The position numbers were made by a program, and so were the translations under genes. 51,502 bases of DNA from NCBI RefSeq assembly GCF_003334255.1, contig NZ_QOWU01000037.1, one strand, 5' to 3'. Of the stretch, positions 1,098 through 24,861 are shown piece by piece; position 1 is the first letter of the stretch; each line of letters starts with the position of its first letter. The notes under the pieces were generated by a model. That model searched no databases and had not been told where the DNA came from. It worked only from the letters and a program-made list of their open reading frames with translations. The stretch comes from Escherichia coli (GTDB lineage Bacteria > Pseudomonadota > Gammaproteobacteria > Enterobacterales > Enterobacteriaceae).

Positions 1098-1136
1098 AAA
1101 CCGCAGCACGATCTTGCATACGACGTGCTACGGTTT
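1098..1136. terminator. Imperfect 13-bp hairpin between the convergent GIY-YIG and invertase genes (candidate shared terminator)
   Basis: aaaccgcagcacg (1098-1110) pairs with cgtgctacggttt (1124-1136) with one mismatch and a 13-nt loop. The flanks are only weakly T-rich. Confidence 0.35.
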
Positions 1137-1690
1137 CATTTATCTCCGACCGGAAACTTCTTATACAGTGTCGATATACCAACATCATAGATGATCGCCA
1201 CCTTCTGGCGAGGAACGCCTGATGCAATTAATCGCCCGGCCTGCGCCCATTGTTCTGGTGTAAGTTTGGGACGACGTCCACCAATTCGTCCCTGTGCGCG
1301 AGCAGCCTCCAGTCCAGCTTTTGTTCGTTCAACAATCAGTTCTCGTTCCATTTCAGCCAGGGCCCCCATCACATGAAAGAAAAAACGCCCCATCGGTGTG
1401 CTGGTATCAATAGCATCCGTCAGGCTGCGAAAATTAACGCCACGTTCGCGCAACTCCTCAACCAGAATGACCAGATGCCGCATACTACGCCCCAGCCGCT
1501 CCAGCTTCCAGACAACCAGAGTGTCACCTGCCGATAATGTCCTGAGCAGTTTTTTCAGTCCCGGCCTTTCGGACTTTGTACCGCTTATCTTGTCTTCAAA
1601 AATCAGCTCGCATCCTGCACAGTTCAGCGCATTACGTTGTAGATCTGTGTTCTGGTCATTTGTTGACACACGTACATAGCCAATAAGCAT
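1136..1690 (-). CDS. Serine DNA invertase, Pin/Gin/Cin/Hin (Din) family
   Basis: 184 aa starting MLIGYVRVSTNDQNTDLQRNAL..., with the catalytic Ser in the YVRVST motif and a C-terminal HTH (GISTLYKKF). An AGGGAG Shine-Dalgarno lies 8 nt upstream of the ATG at 1690. It sits next to tail-fibre cassettes as in e14, Mu and P1. Confidence 0.92.
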   Translation of the reverse strand: MLIGYVRVSTNDQNTDLQRNALNCAGCELIFEDKISGTKSERPGLKKLLRTLSAGDTLVVWKLERLGRSMRHLVILVEELRERGVNFRSLTDAIDTSTPMGRFFFHVMGALAEMERELIVERTKAGLEAARAQGRIGGRRPKLTPEQWAQAGRLIASGVPRQKVAIIYDVGISTLYKKFPVGDK

Positions 1691-1744
1691 GGTAGATCTC
1701 CCTGACAAAAGCAGGAATGATGCCATTTGCTTGTTATTTCTGCA

Positions 1745-1770
1745 TTTTCATAAACGTTGGTTTGGGAGAA
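1745..1770. promoter_or_regulatory. Invertase crossover site, invertase-proximal (hix/gix/pix-like)
   Basis: ttttcataaacgttggtttgggagaa. Its reverse complement, ttctcccaaaccaacgtttatgaaaa, matches the site at 3462-3487 and carries the AAACCNNGGTTT core typical of Din-family sites. Confidence 0.75.
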
Positions 1771-2130
1771 GCGGCAAGACGAAATGTGGGAACAGGGGAA
1801 AATCAGATACCGGACATGGCTTCATTTAGTGGGGTGAGGGATTATTACGGAAAACAACTTTTGCCAGGAGGGTTGATACTTCAGTGGCTGACGATTCCAT
1901 CAAGTGCAGCAGCCAACGCTGTAACACTGAATAATGGTAATTATCAGCTGTCAGGCTATAAATGGCCCCAGTCATTTGGTGTCCTGTTTGCTGTGTTTGC
2001 TACAAAAGTTTCTGGCTCGACTAACGAAGCATATGCAATCTCAGTTAATCGTCACTCTACCGATGTAATTGTCACCTGGAATGCCCGTAAGGCTGATGAT
2101 GTCCACATTTTAGGAATTGGGAAATTATGA
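1771..2130 (+). CDS. Alternative tail-fibre C-terminal cassette, silent in this orientation
   Basis: The reading frame is open from the crossover site, with the same LGLGEA codons at its 5' end. It has no start or promoter of its own and is followed by a coupled Tfa gene (ATGA overlap at 2127). Confidence 0.6.
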
Positions 2131-2546
2131 AAATGAAATGGTCACCATCTGTTCAGGGATTTTTCTCTGAAAATAACAGCGATATTCCCGATGATGCTTT
2201 CGATATTGAAGATGCTCTTTATTATGAACTTATGAATGGTCAGAGTACGGGGAAAATTATTATCAATAACCCGGATAACTACCCTGTACTTACTGAATAT
2301 CCAGCGAAGACACAGGAACAGGAAATAGCTGAAGCGGAGGGAATGAAAAGTATACTTATTGAACAGGCCAACGAATACATGAACAGTAAGCAATGGCCTG
2401 GTAAAGCCGCTATTGGTCGTCTGAAAGGTGAGGAACTGGCGCAATATAATTTGTGGCTGGATTACCTGGACGCACTGGAACTGGTCGATACTTCCGGTGC
2501 GCCAGATATTGAATGGCCTACGCCTCCGGCAGTTCAGGCCAGATGA
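2127..2546 (+). CDS. Tail fibre assembly protein (Tfa/U-like), partner of the silent cassette
   Basis: 139 aa. The C-terminal part, [47 protein letters not shown], is typical of the Tfa family. Confidence 0.8.
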
Positions 2547-2781
2547 CGTCCGGCGCGGTGCTGGTATCTGATTCCATCACCGCGTCGATATTACCAACAT
2601 CATATTCAGTCATTTCCGGTTCCGGTGGTGCTATAAACTCTCCGTCAGAATAGAACCAACCGACGCCTGCATCTATATGATCAATATTTATAATTTCGCA
2701 GTTAGAGAATAAATCACCCTCTCCATCCCAGATAATAATATTTTTCACCACGCCATGTTCAATCAGAGCAAAATTACTCAT
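2518..2781 (-). CDS. Short tail-fibre chaperone-like protein, partner of the expressed fibre tip
   Basis: 87 aa. It is translationally coupled to the fibre gene (start codon overlaps the fibre stop at 2781) and has a Tfa-like C-terminal motif, [13 protein letters not shown]. Confidence 0.55.
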   Translation of the reverse strand: MSNFALIEHGVVKNIIIWDGEGDLFSNCEIINIDHIDAGVGWFYSDGEFIAPPEPEMTEYDVGNIDAVMESDTSTAPDVIWPELPEA

Positions 2782-3764
2782 CAGGCATACTCCTCAACAA
2801 TAACTATTCCCGGGGCACCGTCACCTCCCGATTGAGCCTCACTTCCGGCAGGTGCGCAGGCTCCGCCTCCGCCAGCACCAAAGCCCTCAGCTTTACCACC
2901 ACCACGTCCGCTGAATGATGAAGAACTTGCACCACCTATACCGCCTGAACCTAGTGGTGTATCCCCCCCGGTACCACCTGCAACAGCTTTAACAGAGATA
3001 ACCATTGCTCCTGGTGTTTTTGCACTACAGCGAAATGCTCTTAGTACAGTACCGGACGATGTCGGACTGGCACCCCATGAAATACCCTGAATATATGATG
3101 TGTTTGCAGATGCTCCCCCCGCGCCACCGCCTGTACCACCCGGTGCAGTTATCAGGGAACCGAAATAAGTTGTGCCACCTTCACTACCTGAATTTCTTCC
3201 GGCTCCCCCCCCTTTACCTGCAGCACCGATAATAACGTTGACTTCGAAATCATTATCAACCTCGAAAAATGCTTCAATAAATGCACCGCTCAATCCAGCT
3301 CCGGCTGTTGCCTGCTGATTTTCTGTTGTTTCAGGAACCCCACCGCCGCCGCCACCGCCACCAGAGGCAATGACCCTTATCTTTTTTGTCCCTGGTGTTG
3401 GGATATATTTTCCAGAGCTTTTAAAAATATTCGTGTTTAACAAACGACCAGAGAATCTGGCTTCTCCCAAACCAAGGTTTTCGAGAGCCGTTTGCACAGT
3501 GCCATCCGATTTGATATCGCCAAACGGATTCTTGCGGCTTAACAGCAGCGCACGAAGTGCGGTAAGCATCTGGTCATGCCGCCCTTTCTCCAGGCTGGCA
3601 CCGGAGGCCTCCACCACGCTACAAAGTTCTTCCTGCAACATGTCAAAGTAGTCATCATCCAGATCGGTGGCAGGTGTGCCGGTCTGGGGGTTACCACGGG
3701 TAAAACCGTTCTTACCCGCGCCGAACTTATCCTTCTGCGCGGTTTTCGTGTCTATACGATGCAT
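2781..3764 (-). CDS. Tail fibre protein: conserved N-terminal constant part plus glycine-rich variable C-terminus
   Basis: The N-terminus [48 protein letters not shown] is typical of a prophage fibre N-domain. The C-terminal roughly 195 aa are dominated by Gly runs. Confidence 0.8.
3462..3487. promoter_or_regulatory. Invertase crossover site inside the tail-fibre gene (hix/gix/pix-like)
   Basis: ttctcccaaaccaaggttttcgagag. Two imperfectly symmetric 12-bp half-sites flank a central AA. It is inverted relative to 1745-1770 and encodes ..ENLGLGEA.. of the fibre. Confidence 0.75.
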
Positions 3765-3767
3765 GGA

Positions 3768-4352
3768 TTACTCCGGATATTTAAAAATTACGTAGGTATG
3801 CGAAGGGCAGAGTTTGTTAAGCACGCACTCGACAACGGTGTCGCCCCAGATACGCAGTGCGGAATCACAGGGATCGCCACATGTCATCCAGGTGGTGTTG
3901 GTGGCGGCTGGCATGTTGACCTGCCAGTAATACCGCCATTCCGGCGCATTCACTGCGTCAGTACAGGCCGATGAGCAGGTGAACGTGCTTTTATCGTATC
4001 GCGTGATAGTGGCGTCTGGTCTGCCCAGGGCAGCAAGCTGTGCAAGGTAAAAATCCTCATTGATGCCGCCCGCCAGATTAACCTTCGCATCCAGCCGTTG
4101 CTGACGCTGGCGAAGGGTCTGTGTCCCTGCGGGAATACATTCATCCGGCAGACCGCACAGACGCTCCCAGCGGTTTATCAGTTCAGTGGTGGTGCGCGGA
4201 TCCAGCTCCCGCATCAGGGCATCCGCACGCTGATGAACGCGGGTTAATGAAGGTGCCGCACCGGCAATCGCCGGATCGCTGGCTGACCATGCAGGACCGG
4301 GCGGCAACAGTGCCGATAACAGGCGGATGTAATCATCGTTTGTCACGTCCAT
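3768..4352 (-). CDS. Baseplate/tail protein, Mu gp48-like (DUF2313-type)
   Basis: 194 aa. It sits between the baseplate J-like gene and the fibre gene, and its start overlaps the upstream gene. Confidence 0.65.
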
Positions 4353-5401
4353 GAAATCGTCCCCAGAACCGCCAGTTCATTTTTTGCAATGGAGATATTG
4401 TCCGCCGGGGCAAGCAACTGATGGCTGTATTCCCCGTTCGCACCGGAAATCGCCTCACTGATACGCGATACCTTCAGTTCTCCCTGAGGATAACCATCAC
4501 GCAGCAGGAACGAACGCAACTCTGCGGTGATGGCAGCCCGTATTTCCGGTGTGTCCGGCGTCACGCGGATATGAAAATCCACTTTATGCGCCACCGGCCT
4601 GAATACATACAAATCAGAGCCTGCCACCGGGGCCAGTGGCTCAATGTGTTGTCTTGCCGCCGTTTCCGTTGATTCTTCCGGAATGGGATTAATCAGGTCA
4701 CTGCTGGCAATCATCACACCGACAGTTCCCGTTCCCATCCAGTGACGGTATGTCCATGCGCGGGTAATGCCGGGCACTTCTTTAGCCCAGACGACATAGT
4801 CCACGTCAGCCCCGCCCTGCGGCGTCCAGTAATACCGCTCAATGATGCGGGCGCGCCACGTTTCCAGATCTTCAGTATCAAATCCGCCTGTCAGGGTGTC
4901 AGCCACACCGGAAGACGGCAGACCATTCACCGGCGTGACCAGGATTAATGACGTACCGTCGTCAGCGTTACCGACCGCGCCTGAACTTGAGCAGGCGATC
5001 GGCACGCGCAGGACACCACCGGAGCTGGTTGCATCGGCAGTTGCCGTGTACTGAACCAGGTCATCGCGCTGAATAACACTCCCGGCGGTCACCTTCAGGC
5101 CATCGCTGACACCTTCCCAGCGCATATACCCGCTGGCAGCCGTGGCCCCCTTGCGCGGACACCGTTTCATCGCAGCATGTCGCGCCAGCCAGGACTCATC
5201 GCACAGGTCAGGCAGCATGTTCATTGCCAGATAATCGATGTAACCGTAAACCGTATGCAGCGCCGCCGCATACACCTTTGCCCGCACGTCTTCATCCATG
5301 CGCCGGAGCGTGTCGCTGACGTCCAGCCTGGCGAATAAATCGTTACGGAGCATACTGATATTTTCTGCCAGCGTCGGGCGCTGAAATTCACTGTCCGCCA
5401 T
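4343..5401 (-). CDS. Baseplate J-like protein (Mu gp47-like)
   Basis: 352 aa. Size and position are consistent with the Mu-type baseplate block. Confidence 0.75.
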
Positions 5402-5816
5402 GCGTTATCGCACTCCACAGATCATCAAAAGAAATCATTACCGGTCCGTCACGACGCCAGAGAGTGATACTGTTACCCAGTTCATTAATCCCGGTGCGGC
5501 GGATATCCAGATCAATACGGGACACCACGCCATCATCAATCATCCATTGCAGGCATTCGCGGATATACCCCCTTACCGTCTGCACCAGCTGATTGGTCAG
5601 TTTGCTGCGCTGAAGCAGCCACAGTCGGGAGCCGTAACGGTCATTCTGTACCGCAGGCCAGGTATCCCCCCACCATCCCATCGGGACGTCGGCGTTGTCA
5701 TCAGGCTCCGCCCGCCGCCAGGTAAACAGGGAAATCACCACGGAGCGGGTCAGCGGATCCAGCGGTGCGCTGGCGCAGGTGCGTTTACCGTTCACCGTCA
5801 GCCACAGTTCCATCAT
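5388..5816 (-). CDS. Baseplate protein, Mu gp46-like
   Basis: 142 aa. Its position is syntenic with Mu gp46, and its ends overlap the neighbouring genes, consistent with translational coupling. Confidence 0.65.
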   Translation of the reverse strand: MMELWLTVNGKRTCASAPLDPLTRSVVISLFTWRRAEPDDNADVPMGWWGDTWPAVQNDRYGSRLWLLQRSKLTNQLVQTVRGYIRECLQWMIDDGVVSRIDLDIRRTGINELGNSITLWRRDGPVMISFDDLWSAITHGGQ

Positions 5817-23778: not shown

Positions 23779-24861
23779 ATGAAAAAATTAACAGTGGCAA
23801 TTTCTGCTGTAGCTGCATCAGTACTGATGGCGATGTCTGCTCAGGCAGCTGAAATTTATAATAAAGACAGTAACAAGCTGGATCTGTACGGGAAAGTTAA
23901 TGCTAAGCACTACTTCTCCTCTAATGATGCAGATGATGGTGATACTACTTATGCCCGTCTTGGCTTCAAAGGTGAAACCCAAATCAACGATCAACTGACT
24001 GGTTTCGGTCAGTGGGAATATGAATTCAAAGGCAACCGCGCTGAATCTCAAGGTTCCTCCAAAGATAAAACCCGTCTTGCCTTCGCTGGCCTGAAATTCG
24101 GTGACTACGGCTCCATCGATTACGGCCGTAACTACGGTGTAGCATACGACATCGGTGCGTGGACTGACGTCCTGCCAGAATTCGGTGGTGACACTTGGAC
24201 TCAAACAGATGTGTTCATGACTGGTCGCACCACTGGTGTTGCAACTTATCGTAACAACGACTTCTTTGGTCTGGTTGATGGTCTGAACTTTGCTGCTCAG
24301 TATCAGGGTAAAAATGACCGCACTGACGTAACTGAAGCTAATGGTGATGGTTTCGGTTTCTCCACTACTTATGAGTATGAAGGATTCGGTGTAGGTGCAA
24401 CCTATGCTAAATCTGATCGCACTAATAATCAGGTTATCTACGGTAACAACGGTCTGAATGCTTCTGGTCAAAATGCTGAAGTATGGGCAGCTGGTCTGAA
24501 ATATGATGCGAACAACATCTATCTGGCCACCACCTATTCTGAAACCCAGAACATGACTGTTTTTGGTAATAACCATATTGCCAACAAAGCACAAAACTTC
24601 GAAGCTGTTGCACAATATCAGTTCGACTTCGGCCTGCGTCCATCCGTTGCTTACCTGCATTCTAAAGGAAAAGACTTGGGTGTTTGGGGTGATCAGGACC
24701 TGGTTGAATATGTTGATGTAGGTGCAACCTATTACTTCAACAAAAATATGTCCACTTTTGTTGACTACAAAATCAACCTGATTGATAAGAGCGATTTCAC
24801 GAAAGCATCTGGCGTTGCTACCGATGATATCGTTGCTGTAGGTATGGTTTACCAGTTCTAA
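23779..24861 (+). CDS. nmpC: Phage-borne general porin (NmpC/Lc family moron)
   Basis: Signal peptide followed by [17 protein letters not shown]... and a C-terminal VGMVYQF. It is a paralogue of PhoE at 41335-42390. Confidence 0.9.

Follow-up and report, generated by a model that had tools for sequence, protein, structure and literature searches.

The window analyzed here is a stretch of 51,502 nucleotides from an Escherichia coli contig (NZ_QOWU01000037.1), in which a tail-fibre gene was found after the baseplate genes (Baseplate_J type and Mu Gp48/YmfQ) and before a pinE invertase gene. Tape measure, sheath, capsid, portal, terminase, lysozyme, replication protein, CI-type repressor and integrase genes were also recognized by Pfam, and approximately 17 kb showed 97-98% identity to the Shigella phages SfIV, SfII and SfI and to the E. 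coli phage vB_EcoM-720R4. Judging from these genes and similarities, the host element is apparently a complete SfII/SfIV/SfV-like temperate myovirus prophage. Because the prophage looks complete, a role in the virion is the default reading for the fibre. The features at the fibre locus are as follows:

1136-1726, minus strand: pinE-type serine DNA invertase (Pfam Resolvase, E = 7e-51, and HTH_7)
1717-2130, plus strand: putative alternative tip Sv' of the gp53-like C-terminal type, silent here, which would be joined to the constant region Sc after inversion
1745-1772: left recombination site (inverted-repeat arm 1752-1772)
2127-2546, plus strand: 139-aa tail-fibre assembly protein for the alternative tip (Caudo_TAP, E = 2.6e-23; PHROG 188, E = 2e-51)
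2518-2781, minus strand: shortened tail-fibre assembly chaperone of 87 aa, the ATG of which overlaps the fibre TGA at base 2781
2781-3764, minus strand: tail-fibre gene of 327 aa, a single open reading frame with the constant N-terminal part and the glycine-rich tip in frame
2784-3458, minus strand: variable tip Sv, residues 103-327, predicted TNF-like β-sandwich and glycine-rich domain of the PF21722 / Pam3 gp24 type
3004-3134, minus strand: most variable tip segment, approximately residues 211-253, likely the receptor-contact loop region (column entropy, indels and a pLDDT dip)
3460-3487: right recombination site, inside codons 93-102 and just before the glycine-rich tip (inverted-repeat arm 3460-3480)
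3471-3764, minus strand: constant region Sc, residues 1-98, a StfP/StfE-type, baseplate-docking N-terminus

The constant part and the glycine-rich tip shared one reading frame, which indicated that the fibre gene is in the 'ON' orientation. The original prediction had described poly-glycine motifs at positions 2781-3368, which correspond to fibre residues 133-327. When the translation of the open reading frame was checked, all seven glycine-rich runs and the segment preceding them were found where they had been placed:

residues 127-134: KKIRVIAS, before the first glycine run
residues 135-142: GGGGGGGG
residues 183-189: GKGGGAG
residues 209-218: GGTGGGAGGA
residues 262-267: AGGTGG
residues 272-279: GSGGIGGA
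residues 286-302: a glycine-rich motif of 17 residues
residues 312-319: SGGDGAPG

Glycine accounted for 56 of the 195 residues between positions 133 and 327 (28.7%), compared with 10.6% in residues 1-132. The whole 327-aa fibre contained 21% glycine, and the runner-up among the window ORFs of at least 150 aa contained 12%. When the tip sequence was shuffled 10,000 times, a run of eight glycines appeared in 54 shuffles and 24 GG dipeptides were reached in 42, so the clustering of glycine in the tip exceeds what its composition predicts. At the DNA level, the sole tandem repeat revealed by TRF was a 23-nt CCACCG array at 3340-3362, which encodes the run of eight glycines; with this one hexamer array, an origin of the glycine runs as slippage-prone DNA repeats was rejected. 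The fibre matched the PHROG tail-fibre families 863 (E = 1e-65) and 6202 (E = 7e-60), and a search of NCBIfam returned no family for it. A protein cluster of the same length (P0010), named 'phage tail protein', was 100% identical over residues 100-327.

The counterpart of Sc is annotated as stfP in the genome NZ_LR882050, and Sc shared 98% identity with the N-terminal part of a fibre at another locus (L028) that has a different tip. A weak match to the N-terminus of the Mu fibre S was also observed (5yvq_A, E = 0.09-0.19). The direct fusion of the glycine-rich domain to an e14-type fibre constant region, which the original prediction proposed, was confirmed.

To the tip itself, Pfam assigned PF21722 (Gly_rich_2, 'Glycine-rich domain'), which was the sole family found for the fibre at E ≤ 0.1. 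The match scored 31.1 bits against a gathering score of 24.3 and aligned fibre residues 121-324 with profile positions 9-224 of 226. We found 360 homologues for residues 100-327, most of which carried PF21722 behind many different N-termini and were named 'phage tail protein', 'glycine-rich domain-containing protein' (NCBI) or 'carbohydrate kinase'. An alignment of 57 homologues contained 11 invariant columns, all of them glycine, and ended in a conserved G-hydrophobic-EEYA strand at the C-terminus. The profile built from these 57 sequences was compared with 1.84 billion cluster representatives and matched 28,921 at E ≤ 1e-3, 16,274 at E ≤ 1e-10 and 3,233 at E ≤ 1e-30; the domain was covered in all of the best 150 matches. 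Against PDB sequences, the same profile identified the fibre gp24 of the cyanophage Pam3 (7ypx_A, E = 1.2e-9, gp24 residues 69-284). The profile was needed for this result, as a single-sequence search of the PDB sequences returned nothing for the tip. A tblastn search of the tip against 50,697 phage records gave no match at E ≤ 1e-5, and at E ≤ 1 it gave only short, weak N-terminal matches to the 'GRLLN..FTSSGTYTPT' stretch; since the low-complexity filter masks the glycine runs, we did not read this result as absence of the domain from phages. On profile evidence, the tip is a PF21722 member and a homologue of the distal region of Pam3 gp24. The family is very large and already curated, and the PF21722-type tip is a common fibre tip. 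The novelty that had been implied for the domain was therefore not upheld, as it belongs to a curated Pfam family, is already named by NCBI and has approximately 29,000 cluster representatives. A full-text literature search on PF21722 or Gly_rich_2 found no paper.

The AlphaFold2 model of the monomer, which was computed with the alignment, showed a pLDDT of 89.6 and a pTM of 0.86. In this predicted model, the tip had a TNF-like β-sandwich with glycine-rich loops and twelve short strands, including one at residues 128-134 (KIRVIAS), in agreement with the β-strand-like character that had been noted for KKIRVIAS. The glycine runs had high pLDDT values and received neither a helix nor a strand label from DSSP, which is consistent with PPII. 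We also considered a disordered or collagen-like spacer, which was refuted because the model was confident and agreed with the solved structures; a Foldseek search returned the same set.

In the solved structure, Pam3 gp24 consists of an N-terminal helical shaft, a TNF-like sandwich and a glycine-rich domain, the last of which contains 12 glycine-rich motifs packed into a 4-layer lattice with a spacing of approximately 5 Å (PMC9608196). The motifs at the centre have the form GGGGxGG, and the distal end is hypervariable. The authors, who pointed out a resemblance to ALK, themselves described the angles of gp24 as 'close to beta-sheet' (PMC9608196), a description that counts against PGII angles in the glycine runs. 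Contacts between the tip domains are merely loose, and it is mainly the N-terminal helices that bring about trimerization (PMC9608196). In a later classification, 7YFW and domains of Bxb1 gp33 and gp29 were assigned to the PPII helical bundles (PMC13243192). The homology to solved relatives lends good support to a polyglycine-type scaffold, and by analogy with them we infer that PGII/PPII geometry would also be present in this fibre. Trimer formation by the fibre is assumed from Pam3.

Comparison with other systems revealed similarities as well as differences. Unlike Pam3 gp24/gp25 (7YPX, 7YFW), the fibre described here belongs to an enterobacterial SfV-like prophage, has a StfP/Mu-S N-terminus and lies on an invertible cassette. 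Klebsiella phages have gp24-like fibres (TFP_Y of SCNJ1-Y and MMNM_27), which we set beside the fibre by description and which are of the same fold family, but these are lytic 'minimalist' phages without an inversion system. Bxb1 gp33 (the 'tail wing brush') and the tail spike subdomain of gp29 (9D93) belong to an actinobacterial siphovirus and occupy another tail position, and no sequence-level match to the fibre was found for them. [quoted passage not shown]

The original prediction pointed, by composition only, to a different relative, the gp38 adhesins of T2/T6/S16, and a domain homologous to gp38 could in principle have been fused onto an e14-type fibre. The two proteins are alike in how they would work, in that a conserved glycine-rich PGII scaffold in gp38 (6F45) displays hypervariable receptor-binding loops. 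However, the fibre had no Pfam GP38 match at E ≤ 0.1, no gp38 chain appeared at E ≤ 10 in the PDB-sequence searches, and the predicted fold of the tip was not similar to that of S16 gp38 (6F45), a PGII sandwich on a β-helix. The architectures also differ: gp38 sits as a monomer of its own on top of the gp37 trimer, whereas the domain described here forms the C-terminal portion of the fibre polypeptide, and gp38 has a β-helix in place of the predicted TNF-like sandwich that would be interwoven with the glycine lattice in this fibre. Kinship with gp38 is largely refuted, and we consider it barely credible. The idea of a polyglycine-II adhesin nevertheless stands in one part, as a glycine lattice is known in the homologue gp24 and is classed as a PPII bundle; the relative that was named for it is wrong.

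To locate the variable parts of the tip, column entropy was followed along the alignment. The highest values (2.2-2.8 bits) were found in the segment at approximately residues 211-253, together with indels of up to 9 aa, and a lineage-specific insertion of 10 residues (residues 240-249) corresponded to 75% gaps among the homologues. Overall, entropy peaked at residues 210-260, 280-289 and 300-309 and was low at the glycine motifs and at the strands around residues 110-140 and 200-209. The pLDDT of the model dipped to 66-87 in the segment at approximately residues 211-253, and model confidence was likewise reduced in the other variable regions. In gp24-like Klebsiella phage fibres, mutations restoring the infection of an LPS mutant lie in the glycine-rich domain, and the fibre protein TFP_Y inhibits LPS-triggered DNA ejection (PMC12671077). 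Additionally, the host-range mutations of MMNM_27 fall in the long loops between strands that lie on one side of its predicted structure (PMC11633184). These host-range and LPS-adaptation mutations support a receptor-binding role, and by analogy the variable segments of the tip are likely to be the receptor contacts. The target of the tip is likely a glycan of the cell envelope, for which LPS would be a reasonable guess.

The tip-encoding part of the fibre gene was found to lie on an invertible segment. An inverted repeat of 21 nt with 95% complementarity (I1) was detected at 1752-1772 and 3460-3480. Positions 3462-3487 read as a 26-bp hix/gix-like site, TTCTCCCAAACC-AA-GGTTTTCGAGAG, when compared with the Hin/Gin sites. 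The alternative tip Sv' matched PHROG 2557 (E = 2e-40) and, weakly and below the cut-off, Pfam Gp53-like_C (E = 0.0034). The genes for the 139-aa and 87-aa proteins are convergent, and their 3' ends overlap at 2518-2546. This arrangement is like that of the e14 P, Mu G and P1 C segments, which have an adjacent serine invertase, crossover sites inside the fibre ORF and two convergent tip-plus-chaperone sets. The K-12 e14 segment differs in carrying the stfP/tfaP or stfE/tfaE set, whereas one cassette here consists of a PF21722 tip and a shortened chaperone; the segment is 1,729 bp long, compared with 1,797 bp for the e14 P segment.

The block at 1752-3480 was shared with other E. coli genomes, and pinE is annotated in both NZ_LR882050 and NZ_CP060083. 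In NZ_LR882050, the block had the same orientation as in the window. In NZ_CP060083, the same block had reversed flanks, the alternative tip was fused to Sc, and the glycine-rich tip was an unfused ORF of 243 aa. Both orientations of the segment thus occur in nature. Such unfused 243-aa forms made up clusters of 291 and 82 members, compared with 57 for the fused 327-aa form. Among 5,426 complete E. coli genomes, 35 carried the cassette; the same in-frame junction was present in only 3 of these 35, and the matches in the others broke at 3480-3486. In most other genomes, the tip is either flipped or placed between different flanks. The inverted repeat, the adjacent invertase, the reversed-flank genomes, the junction breaks and the sizes of the fused and unfused clusters indicate that the tip is under phase variation, as had been anticipated.

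The similarity to e14 extends to the repeat itself, as its core, TTGGTTTGGGAGAAG, matched 15 of the 16 nt of the published K-12 e14 P segment repeat (PMC12529663). When the homologous e14 P segment is inverted in K-12, StfE2 is made, and this product reduces T2 adsorption (PMC12529663). The fibre might by extension mainly serve the host, blocking surface receptors against the adsorption of other phages as e14 StfE2 does, and the near-identical repeat core and the presence of pinE would fit such a function. However, the activity of StfE2 was attributed to a tip of the gp53-like type, which here belongs to the silent cassette, and e14 is a cryptic remnant, whereas this prophage contains a full virion gene set. 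We regard a mainly host-serving function as very unlikely.

Immediately downstream of the fibre gene, the 87-aa protein comprises an N-domain (residues 1-57), which is the gp25-like, fibre-binding β domain, and a C-terminal tail in which only the last approximately 25 residues of the usual chaperone domain are kept. Caudo_TAP (PF02413) matched the protein with 17.3 bits, below the gathering score of 22.1, and this match covered only residues 68-86, which aligned with the last 19 profile positions. As judged from this match, the protein is related to the Caudo_TAP family and is not a full member. A ribonucleotide reductase R2 match (E of about 0.6) was dismissed as chance. Six homologues of the protein were found by a single-sequence search and 131 by a profile search. 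Furthermore, a profile of the partners downstream of PF21722 fibres matched TfaMu (E = 9e-12) and the Pam3 chaperone gp25 (E = 9e-5), the latter match including the N-terminal β domain of gp25. A cognate chaperone with a gp25-like N-terminal β domain therefore lies directly downstream of the fibre. It differs from Pam3 gp25 in length; gp25 has 162 aa, while the protein described here has 87 aa and lacks most of the helical trimerization domain. The missing helical domain is the part thought to drive fibre oligomerization.

A search for related loci in other genomes was carried out with a 17-sequence subset of the 57-sequence alignment and revealed two classes of downstream partner. Two-domain partners of 126-179 aa were found at L003, L005, L006, L011, L016, L021, L022 and L026, and N-domain-only partners of 55-70 aa at L004, L007, L010, L012, L017 and L025. 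The small class was confirmed by Pfam-labelled gene calls in Cupriavidus (L030) and in a second genome (L031), and N-domain-only partners were seen in Dyella, Caballeronia, Serratia, Cupriavidus, an uncultured Enterobacterales genome and an uncultured viral contig. An unusually small cognate chaperone of 87 aa, as proposed in the original prediction, is supported by these fibre-adjacent partners and by the profile homology to TfaMu and gp25. Compared with the other partners, the 87-aa protein is unusually short, yet it is no isolated case. From its relatives, we infer that it would act as a chaperone.

The case for its competence is weakened, however, by the lack of most of the helical domain and by the Caudo_TAP score below the cut-off, and it was necessary to ask whether the cassette is decaying, with an internally deleted, non-functional 87-aa gene and a fibre unable to assemble when oriented as here. 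A 132-aa E. coli chaperone (P0126) aligned end to end with the 87-aa protein except for a gap of 44 residues, which corresponds to the helical core. P0126 adjoins a 327-aa fibre whose Sc is 98% identical and whose glycine-rich tip is a sister tip with 44% identity, so the 44 residues are missing relative to the chaperone of a sister tip behind the same constant region. The N-domains of the two chaperones were 47% identical. Their divergence is thus about as large as that of the tips, a pattern that fits a tip and a chaperone diverging together. The C-terminal tail of the 87-aa protein was predicted to be disordered, and the 3' approximately 72 nt of its gene were found to be a generic tfaE/tfaP 3' end that about 1,900 genomes share, suggesting that it was joined on by recombination. 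The rarity of the 'ON' junction among complete genomes also agrees with decay. In contrast, the ORFs of the fibre and the 87-aa protein are intact and translationally coupled, and more than 130 database sequences preserve the 87/88-aa form with 93-99% identity. The N-domain-only partners recur directly downstream of PF21722 fibres in at least six unrelated lineages, the trimerization of Pam3 gp24 depends mainly on parts outside the tip (PMC9608196), and the remainder of the prophage looks complete. Taken together, we consider decay of the cassette unlikely.

The reading that we favour, to which we assign a probability of about 80%, is that the glycine-rich region is an exchangeable receptor-binding tip of the Pam3 gp24 type on a short tail fibre, which is carried on an e14-type invertible segment and assisted by the 87-aa chaperone. 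According to this proposal, residues from approximately 103 to 327 would form the exchangeable tip of the prophage fibre as a TNF-like β-sandwich, the inter-strand loops of which would be the glycine-rich motifs, running parallel to the fibre axis. These motifs would pack through main-chain hydrogen bonds into a lattice of the polyproline-II/polyglycine-II type. The conserved glycines would serve as the scaffold, and the segments at approximately residues 211-260, 280-289 and 300-309 would lie on the surface and set the host specificity. PinE would flip the P segment (approximately 1752-3480), exchanging the glycine-rich tip and its chaperone for the gp53-like tip and its own chaperone. [quoted passage not shown]

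The family, its structure and the inversion system have all been described already, and the locus reveals no new kind of biology. The polyglycine adhesin reading was essentially right about the mechanism and wrong about the relative. What is gained is a fold and a likely mechanism for a fibre that is annotated only as 'phage tail protein', a 'StfP' fragment or 'carbohydrate kinase'. The Pam3/ALK-like TNF-plus-polyglycine tip would be one interchangeable host-range module of E. coli prophages, which is switched here by DNA inversion. For phage engineering, the glycine scaffold with its loops (approximately residues 211-260, 280-289 and 300-309) would be a compact and designable specificity module, and a very small chaperone would ease the transplanting of the tip. 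The main point of interest is the shortened chaperone. It is possible, and we put this forward tentatively and with somewhat more doubt than conviction, that PF21722 tips need only a small 'clamp' chaperone, such that the 87-aa and 55-70-aa partners are functional alone and the helical oligomerization domain is dispensed with. If this is true, the TNF-like/polyglycine tip would fold subunit by subunit, and trimerization would be left to the N-terminal shaft.

Positions 1100-38500 of the window look like a complete temperate myovirus prophage of the SfII/SfIV/SfV type. The gene set of this region comprised tape measure, sheath, capsid, portal, terminase, lysozyme, replication O, CI-type repressor and integrase genes, and the prophage shared 97-98% identity over approximately 17 kb with Shigella phages SfIV, SfII and SfI and with E. 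coli phage vB_EcoM-720R4. Two further genes were found at its edge and within it:

254-1078, + strand: GIY-YIG nuclease-like ORF at the prophage edge, next to the invertase gene pinE, on its outer side
23779-24861, + strand: general porin, 360 aa (Pfam Porin_1, E=3e-152)

The annotation of matching genomes gives the first of these as a GIY-YIG domain protein of the LEM-3-like kind. The porin gene was located within the prophage, close to the lysozyme gene, and the encoded outer-membrane porin could alter the phage receptors of the host itself.

The gene of the 87-aa protein and the convergent gene of the 139-aa chaperone overlapped at their 3' ends by 29 nt (2518-2546). The first ~72 nt of this end (2518-2590) showed approximately 93% identity to the tfaE/tfaP junction, which was found in approximately 1,900 E. 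coli genomes, and this region is likely to be a recombination hot spot for cassette swapping.

The fusion of the constant part to the Gly-rich part appears to be mishandled by annotation pipelines. In the closest matching genome, NZ_LR882050, which had the same orientation as the window, RefSeq gives only a truncated 'stfP' pseudogene (5363-5665) and the Gly-rich part is left without annotation; the 327-aa fibre ORF was unbroken in the window. Additionally, six PF21722 fibre homologues (P0043, P0048, P0054, P0056, P0109 and P0119), from E. coli, Raoultella, Enterobacter and Salmonella, bore the name 'carbohydrate kinase' in NCBI records, which, because of their position and fold, is almost certainly a misannotation.

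PF21722-type fibres were also observed at other loci. An IMG/VR contig contained a tandem pair of such genes (3782-5600), of 291 aa and 321 aa, the first of which was not followed by a recognisable chaperone. A Leminorella grimontii locus (17-2642) combined a PF21722 fibre tip with a chaperone of 133 aa and with a Pin-like invertase, the invertase sharing 71% identity with that of the window. This grouping therefore indicated that Gly-rich tips are carried on invertible cassettes outside E. coli as well.
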